Below, piece by piece: positions 46,576 to 63,665 of a stretch of DNA of 64,000 nucleotides. Position numbers and translations under genes: made by a program. Position 1 is the first letter of the stretch. Each line of letters starts with the position of its first letter. The stretch is from Shigella phage SP21535, in sequence record PQ615101. One strand, given 5' to 3'. Under the pieces are notes generated by a model. It had not been told where the DNA came from and made no database searches. It was given only the letters and a program-made list of their open reading frames with translations.

Positions 46576-46716
46576 TATGGGAACAACCTGGACCTCATGA
46601 TTCTGTGAGGGATTCCCGCCAACCTGTAATAAGGTCGAGCCCAAGTGCGGTAATGGGTAAATACAGAAATGGACAATTCATGCGCCATGGAATGGCCCAA
46701 ATTTAGAGAGAATAAA

Positions 46717-47259
46717 ATGAGAACATTTTTAACTGGTCCTTATCTATCCCTGATGAATGCTTTTACACACCATTCTGATGCTAGAGTAGAAGAAATTTGT
46801 AATAGTGGATTTTATGTACCTGATTCGTCGCATTTATTTAAAGAATATTGTACACTTCGACTAGACGGTGGACGTCAATCCGGTAAATCAACTGCAGTAA
46901 CTAATTTTGCCGCTAATTGGTTGTATGATGGTGGAACAGTTATTGTTCTTTCTAATACTTCAGCTTACGCTAAAATTTCTGCGGGCCGCATTAAAAAAGA
47001 ATTTTCTCGTTATTCTAGCGATGATATTCGATTCCGTTTATTTACTGATTCTGTCCGTAGTTTTGTTGGTAATAGAGGTAGCAAGTTCAGAGGTTTATCG
47101 CTTTCTCGAATTTTGTATATAATCGATGAGCCTGTTAAATCTCCTGATATGGATAAAATTTACGATATTCATATTGAAACTGTGCAACACTGCTGCAATA
47201 GTAAATGCTGCATTGGTGGTATTACTCGTCCACAGTTTTTCATAATCGGAATGCAATGA
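46717..47259 (+). CDS. small P-loop NTPase
   Basis: Walker A GGRQSGKST, Walker B ILYIIDEP; ATG 46717 after GAGAGAATAAA. Confidence 0.55.
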   Translation: MRTFLTGPYLSLMNAFTHHSDARVEEICNSGFYVPDSSHLFKEYCTLRLDGGRQSGKSTAVTNFAANWLYDGGTVIVLSNTSAYAKISAGRIKKEFSRYSSDDIRFRLFTDSVRSFVGNRGSKFRGLSLSRILYIIDEPVKSPDMDKIYDIHIETVQHCCNSKCCIGGITRPQFFIIGMQ

Positions 47260-47585
47260 TGACAGACACGCAACTTTTCGAATATCTTTATTTTTCGCCA
47301 AAAACTATTAAAAATAAATTGGTGAATCATTTTGAAATTTTGGCAAATAACAACGTCTTGAGCGAATTTTATCCTAAGCAATACAAATTACAAAAAGGTG
47401 TATTTAAAGGATGTAGAGTTTTGTGTACTGCTCCTAATGCAAGGTTAATGAATAAAATTCCATATTTTACTATGGAATTTATTGATGGTCCTTTTAAAGG
47501 ACTAATCACCCAAAGTTTAATGGCATATGATTCTGAGCCATTTTTAATTAAAGAACAATCTTGGATAAATTTATTTTCTAATTGA
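47256..47585 (+). CDS. hypothetical protein
   Basis: ATG overlapping upstream stop (ATGATGA). Confidence 0.45.
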   Translation: MMTDTQLFEYLYFSPKTIKNKLVNHFEILANNNVLSEFYPKQYKLQKGVFKGCRVLCTAPNARLMNKIPYFTMEFIDGPFKGLITQSLMAYDSEPFLIKEQSWINLFSN

Positions 47586-47591
47586 GGTTAT

Positions 47592-47954
47592 ATGAAAGCA
47601 TATCAAATTCTTGAAGGCACACATAAAGGTACTATTTATTTTGAAGACGGTATTCAAGCACGAATTATTGTCTCTAAAACTTTTAAAGAGGACTCTTTTG
47701 TAGACCCAGAAATTTTCTATGGTTTGCATGCCCGTGAAATTGAAATTGAAACACAACCTACAGTTAAAATTGAAGGTGGTCAGCACCTGAACGTTAACGT
47801 TCTGCGTCGTGAAACTCTGGAAGATGCAGTTAAGCATCCGGAAAAATATCCGCAGCTGACCATCCGTGTATCCGGATACGCAGTTCGCTTTAACTCTCTG
47901 ACTCCGGAACAGCAACGCGACGTTATTGCTCGTACCTTTACTGAGAGTTTGTAA
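47592..47954 (+). CDS. GrcA/YfiD-like autonomous glycyl radical cofactor protein
   Basis: C-terminal [57 protein letters not shown] with glycyl radical motif RVSGY. Confidence 0.8.
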
Positions 47955-48175
47955 TGGCAAAGATAATTATTGAAGGTTCTGAAGATGTGCTAAATGCTTT
48001 CGCCGAGTGGTTTAGTAATTCAGGCGAACAGCAATTTAATGAAGCGTGGAACATGGGTGATATTAGTGGAATTTATCCTACGACAGAAATTTCTGTTCAA
48101 GGATATGGAATTCATGAACCTATTCGTTTAGTTGAATATGATTTGGGAACAGGTGAGGAAGTAAAATATGATTGA
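47954..48175 (+). CDS. hypothetical protein
   Basis: 73-aa ORF, start overlaps upstream stop. Confidence 0.45.
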   Translation: MAKIIIEGSEDVLNAFAEWFSNSGEQQFNEAWNMGDISGIYPTTEISVQGYGIHEPIRLVEYDLGTGEEVKYD

Positions 48176-48434
48176 AGACATTAAAGGTTATAAGCCACAT
48201 ACTGACGATAAAATCAGTAAAGTGAATGCTATCAAAGACGCTGAAGTTCGTTTAGGACTTATCTTTGATGCTTTATACGATGAATTCTGGGAAGCATTAG
48301 ATAATTGTGAAGACTGCGAATTCGCAAAGAATTATGCTGAAAGCCTCGATCAGTTAACTATTGCTAAAACGAAACTCAAAGAAGCCAGTATGTGGGCTTG
48401 TCGTGCTGTGTTCCAACCAGAGGAAAAATACTAA
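48168..48434 (+). CDS. hypothetical protein
   Basis: 88-aa ORF, start overlaps upstream stop. Confidence 0.45.
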   Translation: MIEDIKGYKPHTDDKISKVNAIKDAEVRLGLIFDALYDEFWEALDNCEDCEFAKNYAESLDQLTIAKTKLKEASMWACRAVFQPEEKY

Positions 48435-48711
48435 TGGCTCAATTAAGCGCAGGGTTTGGTTATGAGTATTATACTGCCCTCGTCGTGTATCTGTTGCTCC
48501 TAAGAAAATTCAAAGTCTTGATGACTTCCAGGAAGTAGTTCGTAACGCTTTCCAGGACTATGCACGTTATCTTAAAGAAGATTCACAGGACTGTCTCGAA
48601 GAAGATGAAATTGCTTACTATGAGCAGCGTCTTGAACAGCTCAAAAATCTACATGAGGTTCGTGCAGAAGTTTCAAAGTCTATGAATAAATTGATTAGAT
48701 TTAAAGAATAA
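48434..48711 (+). pseudogene. small gene interrupted by -1 frameshift at A-run
   Basis: ATG 48434 frame stops at 48536-48538; overlapping frame open 48466-48711; one extra A in AAAA 48505-48508 would fuse to a ~92-aa product. Confidence 0.4.
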
Positions 48712-48713
48712 CT

Positions 48714-48743
48714 GTTTACTTTTCCTCTTGACTGTGGTATAAT
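48714..48743 (+). promoter_or_regulatory. early promoter (GTTTAC ... TGgTATAAT)
   Basis: GTTTAC 48714-48719, TGGTATAAT 48735-48743, flanking inverted repeat. Confidence 0.55.
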
Positions 48744-48770
48744 TTTTCTATCAGTTAAGAGGAGAATAAC

Positions 48771-49232
48771 ATGACTATCAATACAGAAGTTTTTATCCGT
48801 CGAAATAAGCTCCGTCGTCACTTTGAGTCGGAGTTTCGTCAAATTAACAATGAGATTCGTGAGGCATCAAAAGCAGCAGGGGTCTCATCGTTTCATCTAA
48901 AATATTCTCAACATCTTCTTGATCGTGCAATTCAACGGGAGATTGATGAGACATACGTTTTTGAATTATTCCATAAAATAAAAGACCATGTTTTAGAAGT
49001 TAATGAATTCCTGAGTATGCCTCCGCGTCCTGACATTGACGAGGATTTTATTGATGGGGTTGAATATCGTCCTGGACGTTTAGAAATCACAGATGGAAAT
49101 CTTTGGCTTGGATTTACAGTTTGTAAACCTAACGCGAAGTTCAAAGACCCGTCACTTCAATGTAGGATGGCAATTATCAACAGTCGTCGTTTACCAGGAA
49201 AGGCTTCTAAAGCAGTAATTAAAACTCAATGA
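48771..49232 (+). CDS. regB: endoribonuclease RegB
   Basis: 153 aa; sequence and position between vs and the vs.x genes. Confidence 0.8.
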   Translation: MTINTEVFIRRNKLRRHFESEFRQINNEIREASKAAGVSSFHLKYSQHLLDRAIQREIDETYVFELFHKIKDHVLEVNEFLSMPPRPDIDEDFIDGVEYRPGRLEITDGNLWLGFTVCKPNAKFKDPSLQCRMAIINSRRLPGKASKAVIKTQ

Positions 49233-49239
49233 GGTAAGC

Positions 49240-49785
49240 ATGAGAAAAGCACTACTCGCTGGTCTATTGGCCATTTCAATGATGGCACATAGCTCCGAGC
49301 ATACTTTCAGTAATGTCCAACTCGATAACATGCGTTACGCGTATCAATTCGGGGAACAGTTTTCTAAGGATGGAAAATATAAAACACATAAAAATATCCA
49401 CAAGAGCGGATTAGGTTATATAATGGCTGCTATTTTATGGCAAGAAAGCTCTGGCGGAGTTAATTTAAAATCTAAACCAAAGCATCACGCTTACGGAATG
49501 TTCCAAAATTATTTGCCTACTATGCGAGCGAGAGTTAAGGAACTTGGTTATAATATGACCGATGCTGAAATAAAAAGAATGTTGAATAAACGATCCAATT
49601 CAGCTTCCTGGGCGTACATTGAACTTTCTTATTGGTTAAATATACATAAGGGCGATATAAGAAAAGCAATATCCTCTTATAATTCGGGATGGAATGTTAA
49701 AGCTGGTTCTAAATATGCTTCTGAAGTCCTAGAAAAGGCTAATTACCTTAAAAATAATAAACTTTTGGAAATAGTAAATGACTAA
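49240..49785 (+). CDS. secreted lytic transglycosylase-like protein (vs.1 position)
   Basis: Signal peptide; SLT-like motifs QESSGG, AYGMFQ, YNSG. Confidence 0.6.
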   Translation: MRKALLAGLLAISMMAHSSEHTFSNVQLDNMRYAYQFGEQFSKDGKYKTHKNIHKSGLGYIMAAILWQESSGGVNLKSKPKHHAYGMFQNYLPTMRARVKELGYNMTDAEIKRMLNKRSNSASWAYIELSYWLNIHKGDIRKAISSYNSGWNVKAGSKYASEVLEKANYLKNNKLLEIVND

Positions 49786-50125
49786 AATTTTGGTTTTATG
49801 TATAGGATTAATTTCATTTTCTGCTTCTGCGTCAGCAGATACATCATATACTGAAATTAGAGAATATGTAAATCGCACTGCGGCAGATTATTGTGGGAAA
49901 AATAAAGCATGCCAAGCTGAATTTGCGCAGAAATTAATATATGCATATAAAGACGGAGAAAGAGATAAATCAAGCAGATACAAAAACGATACATTATTAA
50001 AACGATATGCTAAAAAGTGGAATACCTTAGAATGTTCAGTTGCGGAGGAGAAAGATAAAGCCGCTTGTCATTCAATGGTTGACCGTTTGGTAGATTCTTA
50101 TAATCGAGGATTGAGTACTAGATGA
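49778..50125 (+). CDS. vs: valyl-tRNA synthetase modifier Vs (positional)
   Basis: 115 aa with N-terminal signal-like helix; gene order. Confidence 0.55.
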   Translation: MTKILVLCIGLISFSASASADTSYTEIREYVNRTAADYCGKNKACQAEFAQKLIYAYKDGERDKSSRYKNDTLLKRYAKKWNTLECSVAEEKDKAACHSMVDRLVDSYNRGLSTR

Positions 50126-50589
50126 TTGTAAAATATATCAAGGGCGATATTGTCGCCCTTTTCGCTGAAGGTAAAAATATTGCGCATGGATGCAATTGTT
50201 TTCATACTATGGGTTCAGGCGTAGCGGGTCAATTAACCAAAGCTTTCCCTAAAATTTTGGAAGCTGATAAATTACAGACTGAATGGGGTGATGTAACTAA
50301 ACTTGGTTCTTACTCAGTCTATGAAAAATACTTTAGGACTCATAAAGCGTATTGCTTCAACCTTTATACTCAATTTCAACCAGGGCCAAATTTTGAGTAT
50401 TCCGCTTTAATGAATTGTATGTTAGAATTAAATGAGTTTGGTGAAAATAAACTGATTAAACCTACAATCTATATGCCTAGGATTGGTGCAGGCATAGGTA
50501 AAGGGAACTGGGATATTATTGAGGGGATTTTAGATACATATTCCTCTAAATTAGAAATTGTGATTGTTGATTGGGAACCATTATTATGA
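50122..50589 (+). CDS. macro domain protein (tk.4 position)
   Basis: 155 aa; macro-domain-like glycine-rich stretches (GCNCFHTMGSGVAG, RIGAGIGKG). Confidence 0.6.
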   Translation: MIVKYIKGDIVALFAEGKNIAHGCNCFHTMGSGVAGQLTKAFPKILEADKLQTEWGDVTKLGSYSVYEKYFRTHKAYCFNLYTQFQPGPNFEYSALMNCMLELNEFGENKLIKPTIYMPRIGAGIGKGNWDIIEGILDTYSSKLEIVIVDWEPLL

Positions 50590-50798
50590 ATATACATTAT
50601 CCACATCCATATGACCCAAAGAATAAGGCAGTAATTATTCGTCAATGGGAACGCATTTGCCGTACTAAATGTCCAATTAATAGTCCACACGATGTAGATA
50701 AAGACTACATTGGAACATTCGTTGAATATACCTTTATTGATAGGAAAGGTCGTAAACAACATGTAGAAGAATATTGCTTAAAGGTTACATGGTTATGA
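50571..50798 (+). CDS. hypothetical protein
   Basis: 75-aa ORF. Confidence 0.4.
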   Translation: MGTIIMNIHYPHPYDPKNKAVIIRQWERICRTKCPINSPHDVDKDYIGTFVEYTFIDRKGRKQHVEEYCLKVTWL

Positions 50799-50980
50799 GT
50801 CTGAGTAAAGAACAAAAAGATAAATTGTTTGAGCTTATCCATGAACTTCTAGATGAGCATACAGAAGCAAACACCTTTTATGATGAATACGGCCCGCTAT
50901 CTCCCGAACAGCAAGAAGAATTTGCTGACCGGTTTGATAAGAAAGAAAACGAATTAATAGCTTATGTGAATACGCTTTAA
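50789..50980 (+). CDS. hypothetical protein
   Basis: ATG 50789 (track start 50774 is TTG). Confidence 0.4.
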   Translation: MVMSLSKEQKDKLFELIHELLDEHTEANTFYDEYGPLSPEQQEEFADRFDKKENELIAYVNTL

Positions 50981-50989
50981 GAAGGTGAT

Positions 50990-51571
50990 ATGGCGAGTTT
51001 AATTTTTACTTATGCAGCAATGAATGCTGGAAAATCTGCTTCTCTTTTGACTGCTGCGCATAATTATAAAGAACGCGGAATGGGTGTATTAGTTCTTAAA
51101 CCTGCTATTGATACTCGCGATTCTGTCTGTGAAGTCGTTTCTCGCATTGGAATTAAGCAGGAAGCAAATATTATTACAGATGATATGGATATTTTCGAGT
51201 TCTATAAATGGGCTGAAGCACAAAAAGATATTCATTGCGTATTTGTAGATGAAGCCCAGTTTTTAAAAACTGAACAGGTGCATCAATTGAGCCGAATTGT
51301 TGATACATATAATGTTCCTGTTATGGCCTATGGTCTAAGGACTGATTTCGCCGGAAAATTATTTGAAGGTTCTAAAGAACTTTTGGCGATTGCAGATAAA
51401 CTTATTGAACTAAAGGCAGTTTGTCATTGTGGTAAAAAAGCTATTATGACAGCTCGATTAATGGAAGATGGAACACCCGTTAAAGAAGGTAATCAAATCT
51501 GTATTGGTGATGAAATTTATGTTTCTTTGTGTAGAAAACATTGGAATGAATTAACTAAAAAGCTCGGTTAG
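50990..51571 (+). CDS. tk: thymidine kinase
   Basis: 193 aa; P-loop NAGKS, Zn-binding CHCG...C..C. Confidence 0.9.
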   Translation: MASLIFTYAAMNAGKSASLLTAAHNYKERGMGVLVLKPAIDTRDSVCEVVSRIGIKQEANIITDDMDIFEFYKWAEAQKDIHCVFVDEAQFLKTEQVHQLSRIVDTYNVPVMAYGLRTDFAGKLFEGSKELLAIADKLIELKAVCHCGKKAIMTARLMEDGTPVKEGNQICIGDEIYVSLCRKHWNELTKKLG

Positions 51572-51613
51572 TGCAAAAGTTATAAATAGGTTTATCTAAC
51601 TAAAGGGGTATAT

Positions 51614-51826
51614 ATGCTACAATTAACTGAAAAGCAACTTCGCAATCTTACTGTTCTTCAATTAGATGAAATTCGTAGGGAAGTTGGAAATATCATTTCA
51701 GCTTTGCGTCGAGAAGTATCACTCAACCAATCTCCGGCAGACTATACTAGATTGCGAAATTTTGAAAAATACCTTGATAAAGTTAAGGCCGTGCATCGGC
51801 ATAAAGTAAATACAGGACAAAAATGA
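51614..51826 (+). CDS. hypothetical protein (rI.1 position)
   Basis: 70-aa ORF. Confidence 0.45.
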
Positions 51827-51838
51827 TAGGAGGCCTTT

Positions 51839-52132
51839 ATGGCCTTAAAAGCAACGGCACTATTTGCCATGCTAGGATTAGCGTTTGCTTTATCTCCACC
51901 GATTGAAGCGAATGTCGATCCTCATTTTGATAAATTTATGGAATCTGGTATTAGACACGTTTATATGCTTTTTGAAAACAAAAGCGTAGAATCATCTGAA
52001 CAGTTCTATAGTTTTATGCGAACGACTTATAAAAATGACCCGTGCTCTTCCGATTTTGAATGTATAGAGCGAGGCGCGGAGATGGCACAATCATACGCTA
52101 GAATTATGAACATTAAATTGGAGACTGAATGA
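51839..52132 (+). CDS. rI: lysis inhibition regulator RI
   Basis: 97 aa with N-terminal signal-anchor; gene order. Confidence 0.75.
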   Translation: MALKATALFAMLGLAFALSPPIEANVDPHFDKFMESGIRHVYMLFENKSVESSEQFYSFMRTTYKNDPCSSDFECIERGAEMAQSYARIMNIKLETE

Positions 52133-52515
52133 AATTCAGCGACTTTTCACAAAGTGGAAAACCTTCAAAGGCAGATGAATACTTAGGTTTATTAATGGCT
52201 GCACAAGCTTATTTTCATTCTGCACATTTTGAAACTAAAAATTATGCTAGACACAAAGCATACGATTTTATTTTCTCCGAGTTGCCAGATTTGATTGATA
52301 AATTTGGTGAGCAATATTTGGGGTATTCTGGTAGAAAATACACGCCGTCAATTCCGGATGCCAGTAAACTTCCTACCGACACAATTAAAATGATTGATCG
52401 TATACTAGACCAATCTAACAGCATTTATAAAGAAATGCCTCCAGCCATTCAAAGCACGATAGATGATATTACTGGAATGTTTTACCAGAGCAAGTATCTT
52501 CTTTCCCTCGAATAA
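52129..52515 (+). CDS. hypothetical protein (rI.-1 position)
   Basis: 128-aa ORF overlapping rI stop. Confidence 0.5.
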
Positions 52516-52519
52516 CATT

Positions 52520-52543
52520 AGTCTCCTTCGGGAGACTTTTTTC
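52520..52543 (+). terminator. rho-independent terminator
   Basis: AGTCTCC-TTCG-GGAGACT followed by TTTTTT. Confidence 0.65.
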
Positions 52544-52552
52544 ATTTTACCG

Positions 52553-52582
52553 GTTTACTTTCCGTTTGAGCTGTGGTACTAT
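52553..52582 (+). promoter_or_regulatory. early promoter cassette (GTTTAC ... TGGTACTATACAACTATC)
   Basis: GTTTAC 52553-52558; conserved GGTACTATACAACTATC block. Confidence 0.5.
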
Positions 52583-52610
52583 ACAACTATCGGATAAAGA
52601 GGAGAACATC

Positions 52611-52799
52611 ATGAAAATTGAAGCACTTAATCAAGAAGGAAATATCTACGTCATCATTAATGGTGATTTTTTCGTCGACATGGATGAAGTTACCAGTGAA
52701 GAACTTGTAGAACTTCTTAAGAAACGTTATAATATGTGTGATGAAGTTGCAACTCACATGGCGTGTGCAATATTCTCTCTTTCATATGTGGTGGAATAA
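52611..52799 (+). CDS. small helical protein, tandem paralog 1
   Basis: ATG 52611 after GAGGAGAACATC. Confidence 0.45.
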
Positions 52800-52981
52800 T
52801 GATTAGTATCGAACAAGCAGATAAAATCAAGGAATTAGTGGCTTTAATTCGTAAAGCAGATGAGGAACGCATTAACTTTGCCTTATCAGGTATTGAAGAA
52901 TTTGAAGATAAAGTTAACAATGCTGTAGAAGCGTTAGATATGTTTCTTGATGAAATTATCGATCATAATACGAGAGTTTAA
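52799..52981 (+). CDS. small helical protein, tandem paralog 2
   Basis: ATG 52799 overlapping upstream stop. Confidence 0.45.
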   Translation: MISIEQADKIKELVALIRKADEERINFALSGIEEFEDKVNNAVEALDMFLDEIIDHNTRV

Positions 52982-52983
52982 GT

Positions 52984-53178
52984 ATGCTAACACGCGAACA
53001 GTTTGAAAAAATCATTAAATTAGCACGTGATATTGAAATAGATTCATATCAATTAGCAGTTGAGCATTGTGAAGGATATTCATACGACGGTATAGAAGCA
53101 GCTAAAAGGGATTTGGATAAATCCAAAGCTAAGTTAGTTCAATATCTTGAAATGATTAGGTGGAATAATGAAAACTGA
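52984..53178 (+). CDS. small helical protein, tandem paralog 3
   Basis: 64-aa ORF. Confidence 0.45.
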   Translation: MLTREQFEKIIKLARDIEIDSYQLAVEHCEGYSYDGIEAAKRDLDKSKAKLVQYLEMIRWNNEN

Positions 53179-53341
53179 AAAGCAGATGTTTTTAATGAAG
53201 CTAATTGAAGAATATGCTAATGCAGTTTCTGACTATGAGTGTTCTTCTCGGGAAAGAGGTATAGCTTTCGCAAAGGAAGAAATGAAAATCATGGTTGATG
53301 CTCACACAAAGCTTCAGAATTTTATTGAAAACGTCATTTAA
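53168..53341 (+). CDS. small helical protein, tandem paralog 4 (below ORF-track cutoff)
   Basis: ATG 53168, 57 codons to TAA 53339-53341. Confidence 0.35.
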   Translation: MKTEKQMFLMKLIEEYANAVSDYECSSRERGIAFAKEEMKIMVDAHTKLQNFIENVI

Positions 53342-53343
53342 TG

Positions 53344-53373
53344 GTTTACAAGTTGGCAAGGTTATGGTATAGT
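53344..53373 (+). promoter_or_regulatory. early promoter (GTTTAC ... TGGTATAGT)
   Basis: GTTTAC 53344-53349; TATAGT 53368-53373. Confidence 0.45.
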
Positions 53374-53505
53374 AATCTTGTCAACTGCCAAGGAGAAGAG
53401 AATGAAAATTTTGTTTGTTGTGTATGTGATGATTCAATATAATTACCCAATGTTTACTTATAATCTAGTGAACAACATTATTGATATTATTCAGAGGAGT
53501 ATGTA

Positions 53506-53691
53506 ATGACAAGTGAGCAGGCTTTTAAATTAAGAGAATTAATTGAGATGTATAGTAAAGCTGTTCATACATCAACAATTATTGATGAATCAGCTTTCTC
53601 CGGACATGCTAACAAGATTAAATACAAAACTCTTATGGAAGAAGCTAAAGTAAATCTTGATTCTTATATTGAAACTTTAATTGGTGAATAA
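53506..53691 (+). CDS. small helical protein, tandem paralog 5
   Basis: 61-aa ORF. Confidence 0.45.
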   Translation: MTSEQAFKLRELIEMYSKAVHTSTIIDESAFSGHANKIKYKTLMEEAKVNLDSYIETLIGE

Positions 53692-53959
53692 CATGGGCTT
53701 TCCTAAATTAGAAGTAGGTGATTTAGTTTTAACAAAATTATGGAATGGTGTTCAATCAGTAGAAATCTGCCAATATCGTGGAGCAACAGGTAATTTGATG
53801 TACACGATTTATAATCCAGAAATTTTGTTAGAGTGTCATTTGGAACGCTTTATAAAAGACACCGATAGTATGCCTTATAGTGTATCAATTGTACGTAAAT
53901 CTGATACAAAGGAATATTCTAAAATTTTAGAACAAATTCGTGCCAATAAAAAGGATTAA
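53681..53959 (+). CDS. hypothetical protein
   Basis: 92-aa ORF. Confidence 0.45.
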   Translation: MVNNMGFPKLEVGDLVLTKLWNGVQSVEICQYRGATGNLMYTIYNPEILLECHLERFIKDTDSMPYSVSIVRKSDTKEYSKILEQIRANKKD

Positions 53960-54500
53960 TATGAAACGATTAGTATTAGAAGTTAGTTCACTTTTTGGTG
54001 AATTGGCTATAGAAAAAGTAAATAATATGTATCGTTTGACGCAAGAAGATGATATGCTATATTTTACGCCTAGTGAAATCATTCATTTAACCCAAATTGA
54101 AAATCCTTATACTGATAAAATTGTAAGCATTAATGATGAGCATAAAATTCATTTTTATTCTTCATGCCCAGGATTTAATATTGAAAGCGAGTCAATATGC
54201 TTATCAGTTATCCATTGGGATAGTTTTATAGATAAGATTAAATATTTTTATTATTCTAATGAAAGAAAACATAGTTTAAAATGGCTTAAAAATTGCAATG
54301 CTATTATTACTAACGCTTGTGATCAGTGCGATCAGAATGATGAAACTGATACTTATATGTGTGTTTTAAAAGCTGGTGGTGACCGTCATCCGGATTTTAT
54401 TTCTATTCGTCAAAACAATGGAGAAATTTCATTATCAAAATCAGAAGCTGAAGCTATGATTAAGTATTTAACAACTGTTACACCTTCAATGAAAGGATGA
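53940..54500 (+). CDS. hypothetical Cys-rich protein
   Basis: 186-aa ORF. Confidence 0.45.
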   Translation: MPIKRINMKRLVLEVSSLFGELAIEKVNNMYRLTQEDDMLYFTPSEIIHLTQIENPYTDKIVSINDEHKIHFYSSCPGFNIESESICLSVIHWDSFIDKIKYFYYSNERKHSLKWLKNCNAIITNACDQCDQNDETDTYMCVLKAGGDRHPDFISIRQNNGEISLSKSEAEAMIKYLTTVTPSMKG

Positions 54501-54982
54501 TTATAATTATGATTATTAATGAAAACTCTTGGCACTATAAAATTTACTCGGCATTTAATAGCACATGGAATCGTCCAAAAACGTTATGTGCTTATTTTTG
54601 GAAAACGTTTCTCCCGGTATTAGCTGTTTCAATTGTTGGATTTGCAACTTTAGCAGGTGCCGCAATAATTGGCCAAGAAATTTTAATTAAATTCTTTGTC
54701 TTTAGTAGTCTATGGACATTAGTTCCGGCTTCAATTGGTATAGGCATTTTAGCATTATCGGTTATGGTTCTTATTGCTGTCGGGGCGGTAATTGGTCCTT
54801 CCTGGTTGTTAGACAAATATAACGACCGAAAGCTCAATAAAGAAATTGAGTTCATTGTACAAAACGAAGAACGAATCAAAAATGGACTTGAGCCTATTCA
54901 ACCCAAGAAATCGATTATCGTTGAATTTTTAAAAGCTCGTAAAGCTAAAGTATGTCCTGTTATTGAATATAAGGCTGAATGA
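54497..54982 (+). CDS. polytopic membrane protein
   Basis: 161 aa with several hydrophobic helices. Confidence 0.5.
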   Translation: MIIIMIINENSWHYKIYSAFNSTWNRPKTLCAYFWKTFLPVLAVSIVGFATLAGAAIIGQEILIKFFVFSSLWTLVPASIGIGILALSVMVLIAVGAVIGPSWLLDKYNDRKLNKEIEFIVQNEERIKNGLEPIQPKKSIIVEFLKARKAKVCPVIEYKAE

Positions 54983-55992
54983 TGAAAACAGTAATGAAAA
55001 GTTATTTTGGTAGTCATCTTTATGGAACTTCTACCCCAGAATCTGATGTAGATTTTAAAGAAATCTTTGTTCCTCCTGCTCGCGATATTCTTATTGGAAA
55101 TGTTAAAGAGCACATGAGTAAAAACACTAACAACACATCATCTAAAAACACTAAAGATGATATTGACCACGAATTGTATAGTCTTAAGTATTTCTTTAAA
55201 TTAGCAGCAGATGGTGAAACTGTAGCATTAGATATGCTTCACACTCCACCTGAGCTAGTGGTTAAATCTGATTTGCCTGATGTGTGGAAGTTTATTCAAG
55301 ACAACCGTTCTCGTTTTTATACGACTAACATGAAATCCTATTTAGGATATGTCCGTAAGCAAGCTTCTAAATACGGTGTCAAGGGTTCTCGTTTGGCCGC
55401 ATTACGTGATGTATTGAAAGTAGTTAATCAAATCCCTGACCAGTGGGTCGACTATCAAGAAGGAATCCCTGATAGACTTCGTCGCACTAAAGTTGAAGAT
55501 ATTAAGCATCGTCTTCCAGAAAACGAGTTCTGTGAATGGGTGTTCCATAATTATGAGAAAACAGGCCCGCAAATGTTCTACACTGTGTTGGGTCGTAAAT
55601 ATCAGACAACGCTTTCTCTTATTGAGCTTAAGCAGTCACTGAACAAATTAGATGCTGAATATGGTGAACGTGCCCGTAAGGCCGAAGCCAACGAAGGTAT
55701 TGACTGGAAAGCTCTGAGCCATGCTTGTCGTGGTGGACTTCAACTATTGGAAATTTACAAAACTGGTGACTTGGTTTATCCACTTCAAGACGCTCCATTT
55801 ATTCTTGACGTGAAGTTGGGTAAACATCCATTTAAAACGGTTCAAGAGTTTTTGGAAGATGTGGTCGATCAAGTAGAAGCAGCATCTACTGAAGCTTCTA
55901 AGAACGGTATGCCTAAAACAGTAGACATGAGTTTCTGGGATGACTTCCTTGAGAAGGTCTATCTTGAAAACCACCGAAGTTATTATAAATGA
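54979..55992 (+). CDS. predicted nucleotidyltransferase (Pol-beta-like fold)
   Basis: N-terminal GSHLYGTSTPESDVDF resembles the G[SG]-x(9-13)-DxD NTase signature. Confidence 0.5.
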   Translation: MMKTVMKSYFGSHLYGTSTPESDVDFKEIFVPPARDILIGNVKEHMSKNTNNTSSKNTKDDIDHELYSLKYFFKLAADGETVALDMLHTPPELVVKSDLPDVWKFIQDNRSRFYTTNMKSYLGYVRKQASKYGVKGSRLAALRDVLKVVNQIPDQWVDYQEGIPDRLRRTKVEDIKHRLPENEFCEWVFHNYEKTGPQMFYTVLGRKYQTTLSLIELKQSLNKLDAEYGERARKAEANEGIDWKALSHACRGGLQLLEIYKTGDLVYPLQDAPFILDVKLGKHPFKTVQEFLEDVVDQVEAASTEASKNGMPKTVDMSFWDDFLEKVYLENHRSYYK

Positions 55993-56207
55993 TAGGGAGC
56001 CTTCGGGCTTATGGTACTATACAACTATCAAAACAAACACTTAAACGGAAAAACAAAATGAAAATTACACCAATTGAAGTAAAAAAGTTGATTGATACAG
56101 AAGAAATTTCAGAGTGTTTTGAAAGTTTCTTAGAAGATGCAACTGAAGATAATGCAGTTTATCTCGCTCAGAAAATTATCGAAACTTATTTGGAGAAGAA
56201 TCAATGA
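55989..56207 (+). CDS. hypothetical protein
   Basis: 72-aa ORF; actual start may be internal ATG after promoter cassette. Confidence 0.35.
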   Translation: MIGSLRAYGTIQLSKQTLKRKNKMKITPIEVKKLIDTEEISECFESFLEDATEDNAVYLAQKIIETYLEKNQ

Positions 56208-56467
56208 CAGTTTACGTAGATGTTTTAATGAATCATGGATGGAAACTTCGCGGTCATCCAACTAAAAATTGTCATATGTTCACTGATGGAGATATTGAAG
56301 AGCTTCACGAAATGGCAGAAGCAATAGGAATGAAACGTTCTTGGTTTCAAGATAAACGCATTAAACATTATGACTTACACGCTCGGCGACGCCAAAAAGC
56401 TGTAGAACTTGGAGCTGTAGAAGTATCTCGTCGCGAAGCAGTAAAAATTTGGCAAACATTAAAATAA
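56204..56467 (+). CDS. hypothetical protein
   Basis: 87-aa ORF overlapping upstream stop. Confidence 0.45.
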   Translation: MTVYVDVLMNHGWKLRGHPTKNCHMFTDGDIEELHEMAEAIGMKRSWFQDKRIKHYDLHARRRQKAVELGAVEVSRREAVKIWQTLK

Positions 56468-56470
56468 ATT

Positions 56471-56500
56471 GTTTACAGCAGGGTAGTAGTGTGATACTAT
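56471..56500 (+). promoter_or_regulatory. early promoter stem-loop cassette (copy of the 38291 element)
   Basis: GTTTAC 56471-56476; GTGATACTATTACCCTATCAA identical to 38310-38330. Confidence 0.5.
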
Positions 56501-56524
56501 TACCCTATCAAAACAAATGTAAAA

Positions 56525-57505
56525 TTGGAGAATAAAATGAAAACTGTAACTATCAATAAGGGTATCTACTTCGGTAAAGAAATCTCTGGAACTTTTGAGC
56601 TCTTAGGCGAATGGTTCCCAGATAATGCTCCGGTAGATGTACAAGGAGATGGTAAAGTTTTTGTTGAAATTGACGGTAAACGTCGCGGTGTTTGGGTTTA
56701 CAAATCAGACATTTCATATGATGGTGTAAAAGTTGAAGAAGTTAAAGAATCGTATGAAGATATGAAAACCCGCATTAATAAAAGATTTAATGTTATGGGA
56801 ATGATGACGAATGGTATTATTAATGGAAACATTCGTTCATTAATTATCTCTGGTGCGGCGGGTATTGGTAAAACGTATTCTTTAGATAAAGCTTTGAATA
56901 AAGCAAATGATAATGGATACATTGAATATAAAAGCATTAACGGTAAAATCTCTGGTATTGGTCTTTATGAGCAGCTTTGGAATAATCGTGAAGAGAATTC
57001 TGTCCTTTTGATTGATGATGTGGATGTTTTCTCTGATATGGACATTCTTAATCTTCTAAAAGCCGCTCTGGACACTGGAGAGACCCGTAAAGTCTGCTGG
57101 AGCACTGCATCTTCTTACTTAGAAGAAAAAGGCATTGAGCGTGAGTTTGAATTTAAAGGAACGATTGTTTTTATCACAAACGTTGACATTGACCGCGAAT
57201 TAGACCGTGGTACTAAACTTGCTCCACATTTACAAGCATTAGTATCCCGCTCAGTTTATTTGGATTTGGGTGTTCACACTAATGAAGAAATTATGGTCAG
57301 GGTTGAAGATGTTATTCTTTCAACCGACATGATGCAAAAGCGCGGTCTTTCTGATGAAGAAACTTATAAAGCATTATCATGGATGAAAGTCAATGTTAAT
57401 CGTTTACGCAATGTTTCACTGCGTACTGCACTTTATCTTGCTGACTTTATTATGACCGACAAAAACGGTTGGCAAGAAATTGCTGAGGTTACTCTTCTGA
57501 AATAA
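56525..57505 (+). CDS. AAA+ family ATPase
   Basis: Walker A GAAGIGKT, Walker B LLIDDVD. Confidence 0.6.
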   Translation: MENKMKTVTINKGIYFGKEISGTFELLGEWFPDNAPVDVQGDGKVFVEIDGKRRGVWVYKSDISYDGVKVEEVKESYEDMKTRINKRFNVMGMMTNGIINGNIRSLIISGAAGIGKTYSLDKALNKANDNGYIEYKSINGKISGIGLYEQLWNNREENSVLLIDDVDVFSDMDILNLLKAALDTGETRKVCWSTASSYLEEKGIEREFEFKGTIVFITNVDIDRELDRGTKLAPHLQALVSRSVYLDLGVHTNEEIMVRVEDVILSTDMMQKRGLSDEETYKALSWMKVNVNRLRNVSLRTALYLADFIMTDKNGWQEIAEVTLLK

Positions 57506-57595
57506 TTCATAAGAGGACTTCTATGACAAAAAAGGCAGTTCAGAAATAGATTATATGGACTGCCATTAAAAAGATGACTAGAATTAAACTGGTAA

Positions 57596-57910
57596 ATGGA
57601 GGTAGTGATGTTATACTCAAAGGCTCGTGAAATTTACGAAACTAAGATTAAAGAAGCTGTATTTCAATTCGCAACGACAATGCGATGGACAAATGACTGG
57701 GAGTATTCAAAAAATCATAAGAAGCCCATGGTGACAAGAAAGGCTCATATGTTAGTGTTAATAGACCGTGAGCAGATTAAAGCCCGAGAAGCCCTCCAGA
57801 ATCATAAAAAGGCTGCCTTTGAATGGTTTATGGATAACACTGCTCCTGAGACTAAGAAAGCAGTGAGCGCATGGTTCAGTGGAAAAAAATGTGAAAGAAG
57901 TTTCTTTTAG
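57596..57910 (+). CDS. hypothetical protein
   Basis: 104-aa ORF. Confidence 0.45.
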   Translation: MEVVMLYSKAREIYETKIKEAVFQFATTMRWTNDWEYSKNHKKPMVTRKAHMLVLIDREQIKAREALQNHKKAAFEWFMDNTAPETKKAVSAWFSGKKCERSFF

Positions 57911-57912
57911 TG

Positions 57913-57942
57913 GTTTACAAGACTGTTCCTCTGTGGTACTAT
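57913..57942 (+). promoter_or_regulatory. early promoter stem-loop cassette
   Basis: GTTTAC 57913-57918; CTGTTCCTC/GAGGAACAG stem around GGTACTATACAACTATC. Confidence 0.5.
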
Positions 57943-57970
57943 ACAACTATCAACTACGGAGGAACAGAAA

Positions 57971-58498
57971 ATGAACGCTAAAGATATTTTCAACCTGGTA
58001 AATTACAACGATGGTAAATTTAAATCAGAAGCACAAAGCAAGTTCTTTAATGACATCTCAATCGAAGGTGAAATCACGGTTGACGGAGGACAAATTTATA
58101 AATCCCGTTGGAATTGGATCGTTATTATCGATGAGATTGGTATTGTAGAAATTTACAAGAATACGAATAAAAATCGTACATTACACTGGTCTCGTGATAC
58201 TAACGAACAGTACAAAAAGGATAAAGCATCTAAATTATCTCGTGTAACTCAAGAAGATATTGAGTTCATCAAGAAAGATATTTTGATGTATGATAACTTA
58301 ATTGCTGAAGAGCAAGCTGTTATTGATAAATTTGACGAGATTAAAGCTTCTCATGAAATTCCTGATTTTATGAAAGAATCAGTAAATGAACGATACACTC
58401 TCATTTCAGAGCGTATTGAAACTTACAAAAAGCAAAGAGCTGAACGCCAGAACACTCTTCGGAAATTTGAAGAACGGTTAAAGACGGTACTCGCATAA
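57971..58498 (+). CDS. hypothetical protein
   Basis: 175-aa ORF with RBS GGAGGAACAG. Confidence 0.5.
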   Translation: MNAKDIFNLVNYNDGKFKSEAQSKFFNDISIEGEITVDGGQIYKSRWNWIVIIDEIGIVEIYKNTNKNRTLHWSRDTNEQYKKDKASKLSRVTQEDIEFIKKDILMYDNLIAEEQAVIDKFDEIKASHEIPDFMKESVNERYTLISERIETYKKQRAERQNTLRKFEERLKTVLA

Positions 58499-58553
58499 CC
58501 GCTTTATACCAAGGATGGTATAATGGTTCTAAGCCCTTTTAATTGAGATTATT

Positions 58554-58961
58554 ATGAAACAGTTGATAATTAAAAGATTGAATTTATTGATATGTTGTTT
58601 ATGTATAGCAATTGCATACGGTTATTACGCAATTAATGATTATATGCATTATAAAGATTATGATGTTACTGTAGTTAATACCATTACAGGAACACAAGGA
58701 AAAGGGTCTAGTTTATCGTTTATTGCTGTATATGAACTCAAAGACGGTTATAGATTTAGTGAATATATTTCCCCAGAGATGTATTCTTCAATAGAAAAAG
58801 GTGATAATATTACTGTAAGTTTACGTCCTTTCGACGTAAAACAGACACTGTTTGATAATATTGTTTGGTTCTTTGGGATGGTATTAGTTCAATCTGTGTG
58901 CGGTGCTTATGTAGTCTGTTCAATCATATTCTGTGTATTTAGTAAAATTGAAATTGAGTGA
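58554..58961 (+). CDS. membrane protein
   Basis: 135 aa, N- and C-terminal hydrophobic helices. Confidence 0.45.
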   Translation: MKQLIIKRLNLLICCLCIAIAYGYYAINDYMHYKDYDVTVVNTITGTQGKGSSLSFIAVYELKDGYRFSEYISPEMYSSIEKGDNITVSLRPFDVKQTLFDNIVWFFGMVLVQSVCGAYVVCSIIFCVFSKIEIE

Positions 58962-58968
58962 GGAAAAT

Positions 58969-59856
58969 ATGTCAGTAGCAATTAATAATGTCAATGCAGT
59001 AATTAAATCTTTAGTTAATAAAAAATCAAATGAATGGACTGTACTTCGCCGTGGAGAGCCAGATAAATTTTTTCATAGATTTAACCCAACTTTGGATTTG
59101 AATGTTATCGACAAAGATGTTCATGCTGAAATTTTAGATAAATTTAAAGTTGATATTGGATTTGGATTAGAAAAACATTTACAGCGACCAAACGGGTCTG
59201 GAATGCTTTTATCTAAACGCATTATGAAAGCCCTTAATAAAATTGGAGCGTTGTCTCGTATTAATGCGAGCGAAATCCTTCGTAATTATAATAAAGGATA
59301 TGACCTTTACGGTCGACTAATGCCAAAATTATCATTCGATCAAATGATTGCGGATTTGTGGGAAAATCAACGACGATTATTAGCATTAGGCGCTCGATTA
59401 GCTAAAGGTCTAGATAAACAAATGATTTTTAAGACCAATAATACAGAAGACCTTAAATGCTTTAAATTTAGTATTCGCGGAGATGATTATTACATCAGAG
59501 CTCGCTCTACAGATTATGTTAATATGGGGCATCATCTCTGTTTAGCTTTTGAAGTTTTAAAAGAAGCTGGAACATTAGAATATTCATCTGGTGCAAAATG
59601 CCCTATTGGTTCAAGTTGTATTTTAATTTATCGCCCGAATGAATCCAGTTCAACTACATTGCCTACAAAACCTGTACCGGTTCGTAGTAATGAAAAACAT
59701 TCTGAACAAATTGATTATTTTAATAAGCAAATTGAAGAACTGAATATTTCTATTCAACAATATGATGATGAAATTTTCAGACTATCTGGATTGAGTAGTA
59801 AAGCTAAATCTGAGCGTGAAAAGTTAATTAAAATTGTTGATTTACTTAAATCTTAA
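58969..59856 (+). CDS. hypothetical protein with C-terminal coiled coil (tandem family member 1)
   Basis: ATG 58969 after GAGGAAAA RBS. Confidence 0.5.
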   Translation: MSVAINNVNAVIKSLVNKKSNEWTVLRRGEPDKFFHRFNPTLDLNVIDKDVHAEILDKFKVDIGFGLEKHLQRPNGSGMLLSKRIMKALNKIGALSRINASEILRNYNKGYDLYGRLMPKLSFDQMIADLWENQRRLLALGARLAKGLDKQMIFKTNNTEDLKCFKFSIRGDDYYIRARSTDYVNMGHHLCLAFEVLKEAGTLEYSSGAKCPIGSSCILIYRPNESSSTTLPTKPVPVRSNEKHSEQIDYFNKQIEELNISIQQYDDEIFRLSGLSSKAKSEREKLIKIVDLLKS

Positions 59857-59864
59857 GGAACACC

Positions 59865-60872
59865 ATGAAAACTCGTTCTCAAATTGAAGATATGGTTCGT
59901 AATGCCAGTTATACTCGTGATGTTATGACATTTTTGTGTGAAAATAATTTAGACCCTGATAAAGTTAATCGTGTTATTCATCACTTTAAGTATACGAATA
60001 GCAGTGAATGGGTGCGTAATTTTAGTAAAGCGGGATATATTACACAAATGACTGCTCGTGAGCAGCTCACCGATTTCTGTAAAACTATTGATTATAAAAA
60101 TCCTCTATTTGTTCAAGGCGTTGGTCAAAGTAAGGTCGATTTATCATCTGGATTTTTCAATCCAAATCATTATCGTATTGAATGGAGATTTATTGCTCTG
60201 TTCCGTAGACAATTAAAGCAAATTTTATCAACTGCGAGTCGATTAAAAGGTTCTGATATTAACTTAAAGAATCTGAAATTTGATGGTTATACTCTTCAGA
60301 TGGAAGTAAGACCATTAAAAGAAAATAATAGAACTGCACGAATTAGCTTTAAACCTAATACAAAAAATTCTCTTTCAATTTGCGAATGCCTTAAATCACA
60401 GTTGACAGAAGCATTTAAGTATATGGATGTTGTTGCTGCTGTTCAATCTAAGATTTTACCTCGTTTTGAGCGAAATTGGGAACATACAACAACATATGAA
60501 CTTGATATGATCGTTTCATTTAAATACGATTTTTTGAGAAAGGACGAAGTCCCGCAAGAGAAAAAACCTGAACCCCAAACTAATTACTCATCAAACGATC
60601 CTAAATTTTGGATGTATAGTTCAGGTAATAAAGATGCATGGAAATTCAATAAAGTGAATTTTCTTTCTGTTGAAAATCCGAGTCTTAAACCTGTTGAAAA
60701 ATGGTACGCGGATGCGATTGAGAAGTCCCTTAAGGCAGTAGATGATGAACTCGTTAAAGCGACCAATGAAGTGCTAGAAGCTGAAAAGGCGTTAGAACAA
60801 GCTCAGTCAAGGGTTCAAAATCTGACAAAGCAACGTTCTAAACTGAACAATGCACTAAATGCACTGAACTAG
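59865..60872 (+). CDS. hypothetical protein with C-terminal coiled coil (tandem family member 2)
   Basis: 335-aa ORF. Confidence 0.5.
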   Translation: MKTRSQIEDMVRNASYTRDVMTFLCENNLDPDKVNRVIHHFKYTNSSEWVRNFSKAGYITQMTAREQLTDFCKTIDYKNPLFVQGVGQSKVDLSSGFFNPNHYRIEWRFIALFRRQLKQILSTASRLKGSDINLKNLKFDGYTLQMEVRPLKENNRTARISFKPNTKNSLSICECLKSQLTEAFKYMDVVAAVQSKILPRFERNWEHTTTYELDMIVSFKYDFLRKDEVPQEKKPEPQTNYSSNDPKFWMYSSGNKDAWKFNKVNFLSVENPSLKPVEKWYADAIEKSLKAVDDELVKATNEVLEAEKALEQAQSRVQNLTKQRSKLNNALNALN

Positions 60873-60901
60873 TTTACTTTGCCACAAGGATGTGGTATAA
60901 T
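60873..60901 (+). promoter_or_regulatory. early promoter (GTTTAC ... TGGTATAAT)
   Basis: GTTTAC 60873-60878; TGGTATAAT 60893-60901. Confidence 0.55.
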
Positions 60902-60929
60902 GTTCTTACTTTCTACTGAGGAGATTAAT

Positions 60930-61856
60930 ATGACTCGTAAACACTATATTGATTATTTTGACAGTCTTATTACTAAACATCGTAATTATCAGATCGGGCA
61001 CAGAGCAGTAATCAATAATATTCTTCGTGATTTCCTTCAATATGTTGACCAGGAAAATCATATCTGTAAAGATACTCAAAACGCTTATTCTCATTCGTTA
61101 GGCAATTTGCTTGAATGGTTTAAACGTTCTCGTATGTTATCTTCTACTGTAGCTCGCGATAACATTAAAAACTTTATGAAGCCGAGCTTCATTAAATCTG
61201 AGACATCTATAACCGATTTGGTTGAATTTACTATTGTTAACGATGTTAAAAAGACCCATTTGGCTGATTGGTTATCTACCATTCCTGAAACTAAATTTGC
61301 TGATAAATTTGCTTGTCAATTCAATGACCAAGTGAATATGCTTTTTAAGCATGCTCGTAAACTATTTACCGCGGGCGATGACCGTACAAATACAGTTCAT
61401 GTTAAGGATTGGGTTATTGCTGATGAAGTAACACACAAGCCAGGTGGTTCATCAGTGTTAATTAATATCCAGGTTCCTTATTATTACTCACGTAATCTCG
61501 GCACCATGAACTCTAGAGAAATTAATAAGCACAACAAAACTATTCGTTCATTGTCTTATAAACTCCGCATGATGTTAAAAATCATGGACGTAGTAGAAAT
61601 GTATGATGAAACCGAAGATAATGGTTCAATGTTATACAGTTCACGCATTCTAATTAAACTGAAGAACCCTAATACGTATAAGCCAGTTGTAAAAGAACCT
61701 AAAGTAGAAAAGATTGATAACCTGAGTGAAGAACGCGAATATCTTAATACACGCTTAATTGAAGTTGAAGCCCAAATTGCAGAACACACCAAATTGTTAA
61801 AAGCTCTTAATGCAAAAGCAAATGGTTTACGTAATGCTATTGAGGTATTGAAATGA
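60930..61856 (+). CDS. hypothetical protein with C-terminal coiled coil (tandem family member 3)
   Basis: ATG 60930 after GAGGAG RBS; track start 60879 lies in promoter. Confidence 0.5.
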   Translation: MTRKHYIDYFDSLITKHRNYQIGHRAVINNILRDFLQYVDQENHICKDTQNAYSHSLGNLLEWFKRSRMLSSTVARDNIKNFMKPSFIKSETSITDLVEFTIVNDVKKTHLADWLSTIPETKFADKFACQFNDQVNMLFKHARKLFTAGDDRTNTVHVKDWVIADEVTHKPGGSSVLINIQVPYYYSRNLGTMNSREINKHNKTIRSLSYKLRMMLKIMDVVEMYDETEDNGSMLYSSRILIKLKNPNTYKPVVKEPKVEKIDNLSEEREYLNTRLIEVEAQIAEHTKLLKALNAKANGLRNAIEVLK

Positions 61857-62170
61857 AAAAGCGCTTATTAGAAGATATTGCAGCTTCAAGTAATTCCAGT
61901 CTAATTAAAATTATTATGGCTGGTGAAGAAGACGATTTAGAAATGCGTGGAAAGATTCATGGCTGTGACGATCTAGACTTTAAACCTCCTGCTTGGGATG
62001 CCATTACGGTTATGGTTGAACGCCGCGAAAGGGCTTCTAAGAATGTTCCGAACTGCCCAAAATGTGGTACTGAACAGGTCCAATTGATTAACTGGCGTAA
62101 ACCAGAGCTTGAATATAAATGTCGTCATTGTAAACATCGATTTGACCGAGAAGAAAATGACAAAGCGTAA
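61853..62170 (+). CDS. hypothetical Zn-ribbon protein
   Basis: 105 aa; CPKCG...CRHCKH. Confidence 0.45.
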
Positions 62171-62330
62171 AGAATATATGGAGACTGCTGAAAAGGCAGT
62201 CCGTGAATTAGCAATAGCTTATTATAATGAACATGGTAAATTTCCTGATAGATACAGCGTGCTTAAATCAGCTTTAACTCGTTCATATAAAAATATGCTA
62301 TCAGAAGTAAGTGATATTATACAAACATAA
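62157..62330 (+). CDS. hypothetical protein
   Basis: ATG 62157 overlapping upstream gene end. Confidence 0.4.
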
Positions 62331-62398
62331 AGAACAAACGGGCCAAAGTCTTGATTACGACGAGACTTTTAAACAAGTATTAGGAATTAAGGAATAAT

Positions 62399-62662
62399 AT
62401 GTTTAAAGTATATGGTTATGATAGCAACATTCATAAATGCGTGTATTGTGATAATGCAAAACGTCTCTTGACTGTGAAGAAACAGCCGTTTGAATTTATC
62501 AACATTATGCCGGAAAAAGGTGTTTTTGATGATGAGAAAATTGCTGAGCTTCTGACTAAACTAGGTCGTGATACTCAAATCGGATTGACGATGCCTCAGG
62601 TATTTGCTCCTGATGGAAGTCATATTGGTGGATTTGACCAATTGCGGGAATACTTTAAATGA
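62399..62662 (+). CDS. nrdC: glutaredoxin/thioredoxin NrdC
   Basis: 87 aa; CVYC active-site motif. Confidence 0.8.
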   Translation: MFKVYGYDSNIHKCVYCDNAKRLLTVKKQPFEFINIMPEKGVFDDEKIAELLTKLGRDTQIGLTMPQVFAPDGSHIGGFDQLREYFK

Positions 62663-62874
62663 TGCTTGAAGGAACTGATTATATCCATGACTACCGCGGA
62701 AGCGCGGTATATGTAGGTGATGAGGTTGCAGTTTATTATGGGTATGGAACTTTGATGACAGCAAAGGTTATTCAAATTAAAAATAATCGTGCTAAACTTG
62801 AAGTTTATTATTCTAACGGTGAAAAGTCTATTTCTAAATGGAAATACGGCGATTGTATGGTCAAACTGGGGTAA
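62659..62874 (+). CDS. hypothetical protein
   Basis: 71-aa ORF overlapping nrdC stop. Confidence 0.45.
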   Translation: MMLEGTDYIHDYRGSAVYVGDEVAVYYGYGTLMTAKVIQIKNNRAKLEVYYSNGEKSISKWKYGDCMVKLG

Positions 62875-62876
62875 AT

Positions 62877-63616: not shown

Positions 63617-63665
63617 TACTTGAAAATAATAAATACCCTTATCTATTTAAGGTAAGGGTTTTATT

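Follow-up and report, generated by a model that had tools for sequence, protein, structure and literature searches.

The window, by which we mean the whole 64,000-nt stretch of DNA from Shigella phage SP21535 (record PQ615101) that was analysed, belongs to a Tequatrovirus, i.e. a T4-like phage. The original prediction had placed an open reading frame at positions 47592–47954, and this was confirmed as a frame of 120 codons on the + strand (Table 1). The stop codon of the preceding gene, vs.7, overlaps the Shine-Dalgarno sequence of this frame, and its own TAA stop overlaps the start of vs.5 as TAATG. Among the 814 phage records that match the surrounding 1.5 kb are the Tequatrovirus phages IME340 and CE1, with 98% identity. 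The open reading frames follow each other as vs.8, vs.7, vs.6, vs.5, vs.4 (Pfam Acb2/Tad1), vs.3 and regB, which is the order in T4, with the + strand of the window corresponding to the minus strand of T4.

Table 1. Features at the vs.6 locus, in window coordinates.
Feature	Position	Strand	Basis or remark
vs.8 ortholog (PHROG 1488)	46669–47259		
Antisense 129-aa ORF	47571–47960	−	spans the whole vs.6 ortholog; probably spurious
vs.7 stop codon, TGA	47583–47585		overlaps the GAGG of the vs.6 ortholog
Shine-Dalgarno GAGG	47584–47587	+	read from sequence; 4 nt 5′ of the vs.6 ATG
vs.6 / Y06I ortholog, 120-aa GrcA-type autonomous glycyl radical protein	47592–47954, including stop	+	ATG-initiated ORF
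Phage-type head, codons 1–60	47592–47771	+	AT-rich, GC3 0.17
Small β domain, residues 1–50	47592–47741	+	AlphaFold prediction
Host-identical tract, ORF nt 181–353, codons 61–118, glycyl radical domain (173 nt)	47772–47944	+	match to E. coli grcA
RVSGY motif, codons 92–96	47865–47879	+	alignment with GrcA and PflB
Gly95 codon GGA, predicted radical site	47874–47876	+	counterpart of GrcA Gly102 and PflB Gly734
Phage-specific 3′ end, codon 118 onward	47945–47954	+	right boundary of the host tract
Differences from E. coli in the 3′ end	47945, 47948, 47949	+	GAG AGT TTG TAA in the window, GAA AGC CTG TAA in E. coli
vs.5 start codon, ATG	47954		overlaps the vs.6 stop
vs.4 ortholog	48168–48434		Pfam Acb2/Tad1 hairpin domain, E 1.2e-19

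The encoded protein shares 118 of 120 residues with T4 Vs.6 (Y06I; UniProt P13316, NP_049730.1), which is named 'autonomous glycyl radical cofactor GrcA' in RefSeq. Protein identity and gene order make the window gene the ortholog of T4 vs.6, and the T4 homolog mentioned in the original prediction is this same, already known gene. The two genes agree in genomic position, neighbours, protein length (120 aa), chimeric DNA structure and junction, and their proteins differ at two residues (T54 and R73 in the window, P and H in T4). In an earlier comparison, vs.6 was conserved in 6 of 6 T4-like genomes (PMC1524935), and a match to the gene is present in 1,540 phage records. In two of these phages the match falls into two pieces, which span more DNA than the query: Salmonella phage Lv5cm (MZ150757.1, 62332–63996), where two CDSs are annotated as 'autonomous glycyl radical cofactor', and phage vB_Eco_Some (OZ034686.1, 46632–46879). 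This suggests an insertion or a partial duplication inside vs.6 of both phages.

A scan for promoters and terminators around the gene gave 14 sites, against 12.8 ± 3.4 in shuffled sequence, i.e. no excess, and the gene looks co-transcribed with vs.8 to vs.3. The vs.4 ortholog matches the Acb2/Tad1 family of anti-CBASS/anti-Thoeris sponges, and therefore the vs cluster mixes anti-defence and metabolic genes. The vs.8 ortholog shows a weak match to part of the large terminase phrog_2 (residues 62–166, E 1.9e-6) and may have an ATPase-like core; its match to a Pfam conotoxin family is under the cut-off of that family and probably spurious. The antisense frame listed in Table 1 was rejected, since the substitutions among the phages follow the + frame (pN/pS 0.12).

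Gly_radical (PF01228) is the sole Pfam domain of the 120-aa protein (residues 60–101, E 2.2e-18). Together with this domain, matches to NCBIfam TIGR04365 ('spare_glycyl', autonomous glycyl radical cofactor GrcA; E 1.4e-45) and to the sequence of PDB entry 6owr, the NMR structure of E. coli YfiD/GrcA (E 4.6e-42), support the earlier reading of the protein as GrcA/YfiD-like. The TIGR04365 score of 154.6 bits lies below the curated equivalog cut-off of 170, because the N-terminal head of the phage protein is divergent. PHROG 1209 covers the full length of the protein (E 5.4e-63). With 120 aa and a short N-terminal region, the protein has the size of a small stand-alone glycyl radical protein (about 120–130 aa), and its C-terminal half is homologous to PFL 693–759 and GrcA 61–127. 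Near-identity of the last ~60 residues to the GrcA/PFL radical domain with its RVSGY motif had been predicted, and was found: residues 61–120 are identical throughout to GrcA 68–127, and residues 58–120 are ~80% identical to PflB 697–759 (E 4.8e-26). In the alignment with E. coli GrcA and the C-terminus of PflB, which had been proposed as a check, the context of the radical glycine is conserved at Gly95. The columns of the RVSGYAV loop (residues 92–98) are invariant in 53 homologs; 39 columns are invariant in this set, including one whole 10-residue stretch, and 44 columns of the C-terminal tail are invariant across 10 diverse sequences.

The annotation of this family is inconsistent. PHROG 1209, several GenBank records and a 2025 T4 annotation table all give 'unknown function' for vs.6, and homologs elsewhere are labelled as pyruvate formate-lyase, glycerol dehydratase radical, ribonucleotide reductase subunit, acetyltransferase, 2-ketobutyrate formate-lyase or hypothetical protein. 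Only positions 680–744 of the 744 in the pyruvate formate-lyase profile TIGR01255 are matched by the phage protein, with 89 bits against a cut-off of 994. Judged from its translation, the protein is not a full formate C-acetyltransferase, as the ~760-aa catalytic barrel protein with its Cys418/Cys419 pair has no counterpart in it. Since the phage copy is without the ~690-residue barrel and Cys418/Cys419, it cannot be a formate acetyltransferase alone, and many phage copies are therefore misnamed 'pyruvate formate-lyase' in GenBank. [quoted passage not shown]

Compared with E. coli GrcA/YfiD (P68066; 6owr), the phage protein has the same stand-alone glycyl radical domain and the same RVSGYAV activase recognition loop, and the N-terminal halves are detectably homologous. 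It differs in being seven residues shorter, in having a head with phage-type codons, and in being expressed from a phage early transcription unit, whereas host grcA is expressed under its own regulation.

The N-terminal half had been described as different from its counterpart in GrcA, and so it is: 14 of 40 residues (35%) are identical between the head and GrcA 28–67. The similarity is nevertheless still significant (E 2e-6 in a BLASTP search with the head only), so that homology extends into the N-terminal half, with the first 21 residues unaligned in the pairwise comparison. The pattern MKAYQIL.G..GTIY...AR.IVSK recurs in the heads of T4-like, T5-like and jumbo phages. The arginine of the AR.IV.K motif, R24, is invariant, and conservation reaches at least 90% at Q5, K29 and D34. 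The head is under purifying selection, with a pN of 0.024 and a pS of 0.20 (pN/pS 0.12) among eight Tequatrovirus-type genes. In an AlphaFold model built with 53 homologs, residues 1–50 are predicted with a pLDDT of ~90 as a small β domain of four strands and a short helix, the linker 57–69 has a pLDDT below 50, and the glycyl radical domain lies at roughly 60–77. A Foldseek search with this model returned only YfiD and PFL-family glycyl radical domains (6owr, E 2.5e-6); for the head there were weak, insignificant matches to KOW/SH3-like folds (E > 0.1).

How might the two halves work together? In YfiD, residues 61–127 reproduce the fold of PFL 693–759, and residues 1–60 are disordered in solution by NMR; their removal abolishes measurable binding to cleaved PFL and lowers radical installation ~fourfold (PMC8683613). 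By analogy, the phage head would be a docking element for cleaved PFL that also aids radical installation, and the tail would be the catalytic insert. As the phage head is predicted to be folded and the YfiD head is disordered, the two may not be identical in their working.

YfiD and T4 Y06I are the only two validated spare-part proteins (PMC8683613; PMC13450708). Both receive a glycyl radical from PFL activase and restore oxygen-cleaved PFL (Wagner et al. 2001, pmid 11444864, as cited in PMC8683613 and PMC13450708); for Y06I, the reconstitution of cleaved PFL is an in vitro result (Wagner et al. 2001, as cited in PMC8683613). The following course of events would be in line with a spare-part protein. 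Vs.6 would be made early in infection, and its N-terminal half would dock onto host PflB after oxygen cleavage at Gly734. PflA, the radical-SAM activase of the host, would then take a hydrogen from Gly95 in the RVSGYAV loop, and the C-terminal domain, with the sequence of GrcA 68–127, would replace the lost C-terminus of PflB. In this way the conversion of pyruvate to acetyl-CoA and formate, and hence the fermentative ATP supply, could go on in a microaerobic host during phage replication. The predicted benefit of Vs.6 would be a fermentative energy supply kept running in oxygen-stressed gut hosts.

The divergent head allows a different proposal, in which a host-exact radical domain mounted on another head acts as a decoy that titrates PflA or occupies PflB, and thereby redirects or shuts down fermentation. 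That the head is strongly unlike host GrcA (35% over 40 aa) and predicted to be folded instead of disordered would suit such a decoy, as would the location of the gene in an early cluster with host-takeover and anti-defence genes such as regB and Acb2. However, the residues for catalysis and activation are invariant, which a pure decoy would not need, and PFL regained activity in vitro when supplied with the T4 protein (Wagner et al. 2001, as cited in PMC8683613). We regard the decoy as improbable.

The substrate of the repair could also be another enzyme. The anaerobic ribonucleotide reductase of the phage itself, NrdD, which is activated by NrdG, is likewise a glycyl radical enzyme that is cleaved by oxygen, and Vs.6 might be a spare part or partner for it instead of for host PFL. 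A role in nucleotide metabolism was suggested in an earlier comparative paper (PMC1524935), and in 6 of 88 phage loci, from Aeromonas phages (e.g. Aswh_1) and Munch-like jumbo Salmonella phages, the homolog adjoins nrdD or nrdG or sits between them. In T4-like phages, however, vs.6 is ~17 kb away from nrdD/nrdG. The C-terminal 130 aa of T4 NrdD, of the zinc-ribbon type with RRTCGY, have no detectable similarity to the phage protein (BLASTP E = 19), which also led us to reject membership in the class III NrdD glycyl radical domains (RxCGY after a zinc ribbon), and the tail is 100% identical to GrcA and ~80% to PflB. The reconstitution of PFL by Y06I (as cited in PMC8683613) counts against an NrdD partner as well, and we find this alternative very hard to credit for the window gene. 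The loci in which nrdD and nrdG have a GrcA-like gene directly behind them or between them (L007:1-1714, L010:1-2150, L115, L117, L118 and L138) may nonetheless represent an 'anaerobic module', or an activation of those copies by NrdG.

In time-resolved omics data for T4 (PMC9697503 supplement), the RNA of vs.6 falls in the early class and its protein in the middle class; as a caveat on the protein, its C-terminal peptides also occur in host GrcA. In a genome-wide dCas13d screen in standard aerobic culture, the knockdown of T4 vs.6 scored −0.14 (p 0.64) and was classed as 'Not Fit' (PMC11879866 supplement). The original prediction had called the role in infection not established, and these T4 data leave that judgement standing. 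It had also held that the lack of a phenotype together with the lack of expression would speak against it; the first part was seen, as an aerobic knockdown without phenotype, and the second was not, both in T4. T4 thus expresses the gene and can do without it in aerobic laboratory culture, which fits a condition-specific role and does not demonstrate one, and any benefit of vs.6 during infection is putative.

At the DNA level the gene is a chimera with a sharp breakpoint. Aligned with E. coli grcA, it is ~40% identical as far as ORF nt 178, and 181/185 nt (97.8%) agree from nt 179 onward; all four differences after the breakpoint (ORF nt 179–181) are synonymous. The base composition changes too: GC3 rises from 0.17 in the 5′ half to 0.43 in the 3′ half, the GC of the window being 0.36 and that of grcA 0.48. 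In every T4-type genome compared, the three codons at the end of the gene are phage-specific, and therefore the host-like tract is internal to the gene. All 5,426 of 5,426 complete E. coli genomes match only the tract part of the vs.6 ortholog, and they do so at grcA. No megablast match to any E. coli genome was found in the window from 23000 to 47760 (24.8 kb) or from 47960 to 64000 (16 kb); the tract is a unique host-like island in at least 41 kb of flanking phage DNA.

Such a structure raises two questions. First, is the whole gene of host origin, or only the tract? Second, by which process, and in which direction, was the DNA exchanged?

For the first question, the tails of 10 GenBank phages, 80 IMG/VR loci and 80 bacterial species representatives were compared. 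In that comparison set, tails at least 95% identical to Escherichia grcA occur only in Tequatrovirus-type genes, for which the next best bacterial match is Citrobacter (89–90%); genomes fetched later showed that Mosigvirus genes carry an E. coli-type tract too. In the homologs from Karamvirus, Pseudotevenvirus, Krischvirus, T5-like, Aeromonas and jumbo phages, the protein of the tail is strongly conserved and its DNA is 70–84% identical to any bacterial grcA, with a phage-like tail GC3 in the Aeromonas (0.16) and jumbo-phage (0.10) homologs. Since these other phage homologs are only 70–84% identical in DNA to any bacterial grcA, vs.6 as a whole is an ancient phage lineage of grcA, on which the E. 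coli-like tract is a recent overlay. The original prediction had spoken of host-derived material, and on the DNA comparison this description fits the internal 173-nt tract and does not fit the whole gene.

For the second question, the boundaries of the tract are informative. They coincide with the limits of strong protein conservation, and because crossovers need homology, this is what homologous recombination, and not a domain fusion, would be expected to give. One might still argue that the gene has no function for the phage and that the tract is a neutral recombination scar, or even an artefact of assembly or contamination, given the absence of a laboratory knockdown phenotype for T4 vs.6 (PMC11879866) and the 'unknown function' entries in PHROGs and several GenBank records. 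However, the open reading frame is intact in hundreds of independently sequenced phages of several families, the phage-specific head is under purifying selection (pN/pS 0.12), and in every genome compared, including the classic T4 record, the host tract lies in frame between phage-specific flanks; moreover, vs.6 is expressed in T4 (PMC9697503). We consider such a scar or artefact exceedingly improbable.

Different phages carry different host alleles. Window positions 47772–47940 are identical at 168 of 169 sites to a rare E. coli grcA allele (e.g. strain LHM10-1), which was found in 12 of 5,426 E. coli genomes. In contrast, the tract of T4 is that of the common E. coli grcA allele (E2348/69 type), from which it has one difference, at nt 218, giving R73H. 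The T4 and window tracts differ at ORF nt 192, 218, 285, 288, 324 and 336, and at nt 354 just past the tract. Two IMG/VR phages show zero differences from the common allele; with that allele as the query, 391 phage records are at least 99% identical, many of them 100%, whereas the window allele is common at 100% only to phage CE1.

In a comparison of 16 phage genes with five E. coli alleles, each of the five positions that are polymorphic in E. coli (nt 192, 219, 285, 324 and 336) is polymorphic in the phages too, where the same two states occur in several combinations; three of the E. coli alleles had been picked as the best matches of the window, which inflates the count of shared polymorphisms. 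A four-site haplotype match is harder to explain by such a bias in the choice of alleles. Between pairs of the 16 phages, the head diverges by 6.6% on average and the tract by 2.9%; the eight Tequatrovirus-type genes likewise have a higher pS in the head (0.20) than in the tract (0.07). A transfer of the rare allele from phage to host was considered and rejected: the LHM10-1 allele and the common allele are distinct along the whole of grcA and in its flanks, beyond the tract, and therefore transfer from host to phage is the simpler direction.

A parallel case was found in Klebsiella-type phages. Metagenome contigs were scanned with a 26-mer specific to Klebsiella-phage tails. Two phage contigs were hit, along with 27 bacterial contigs (56–58% G+C, up to 620 kb), several of which have names of human-gut metagenome assemblies. 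The locus on the bacterial contigs is collinear with grcA loci of enterobacteria, and its nearest representatives are Klebsiella sp. (82.7%) and Raoultella (82.0%); we infer the genus of these Klebsiella-like contigs from such sequence comparison. Against this bacterial allele, the phage contig L192 shows no difference over 158 nt (ORF nt 181–338), and the phages L116 and Wolf_ER13 differ at 5 and 8 of 171 sites, respectively, while the common E. coli allele and the window tract each differ at 21 of 171. The left junction of the Klebsiella-type phages falls where the E. coli phages have it, between codons 60 and 61, and their heads are orthologous phage sequence, GC3 being 0.24–0.25 in the head and 0.57–0.61 in the tail. 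Thus each phage lineage carries the tract of its own host.

Two further bacterial records stand out (L040 / L031). A record titled Vagococcus sp. WN89Y has an enterobacterial-type grcA locus with 91% protein identity to E. coli, probably through contamination or mislabelling, and a 276-kb 'plasmid' of Klebsiella sp. WOUb02 has a copy of grcA.

We propose that the tract of vs.6 (~170 nt) evolves in concert with the host: homologous recombination with grcA of the infected cell would overwrite it again and again with the allele present there. We hold this to be probable. Under that proposal, E. coli-infecting Tequatrovirus and Mosigvirus phages should carry several E. coli alleles and their Klebsiella-infecting relatives Klebsiella-type ones, with the head following the phage phylogeny, a pattern that we expect with comparable confidence. 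As for the gene as a whole, the account in which Vs.6 is a GrcA/YfiD-type spare part for cleaved PFL, with a tract recurrently overwritten from the chromosome of the infected host, is in our judgement quite likely correct.

A host-derived auxiliary metabolic gene with documented exchange of segments between host and phage is psbA of the cyanophages. As with psbA-type genes, the phage here carries a copy of a damage-prone host metabolic protein that needs replacement, and segments are exchanged with host alleles. Different from psbA-type genes, the exchange at vs.6 concerns a tract of only ~170 nt, which is identical or nearly so to the allele of the current host and stands as the only host-like DNA over at least 41 kb. 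No description of host–phage recombination at vs.6/grcA was found in the literature searched; the probable tracking of host alleles by the 173-nt tract is the one feature of the gene for which this holds. If confirmed, it would provide a tractable, measurable case of host-to-phage gene conversion in a strictly lytic phage, and the tract would serve as a simple, genome-embedded marker of recent host use.

Some T4-like phages deposited under other host names carry the E. coli type of sequence as well. In phages deposited with Pseudomonas coronafaciens, Hafnia and Yersinia as hosts, the grcA tract is 98–99% identical to the E. coli allele, and phages deposited under Serratia and Proteus gave matches of 96.4% to the window gene, seen at the whole-gene level only. 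The tract in phages with such unexpected host names may flag recent growth on Escherichia.
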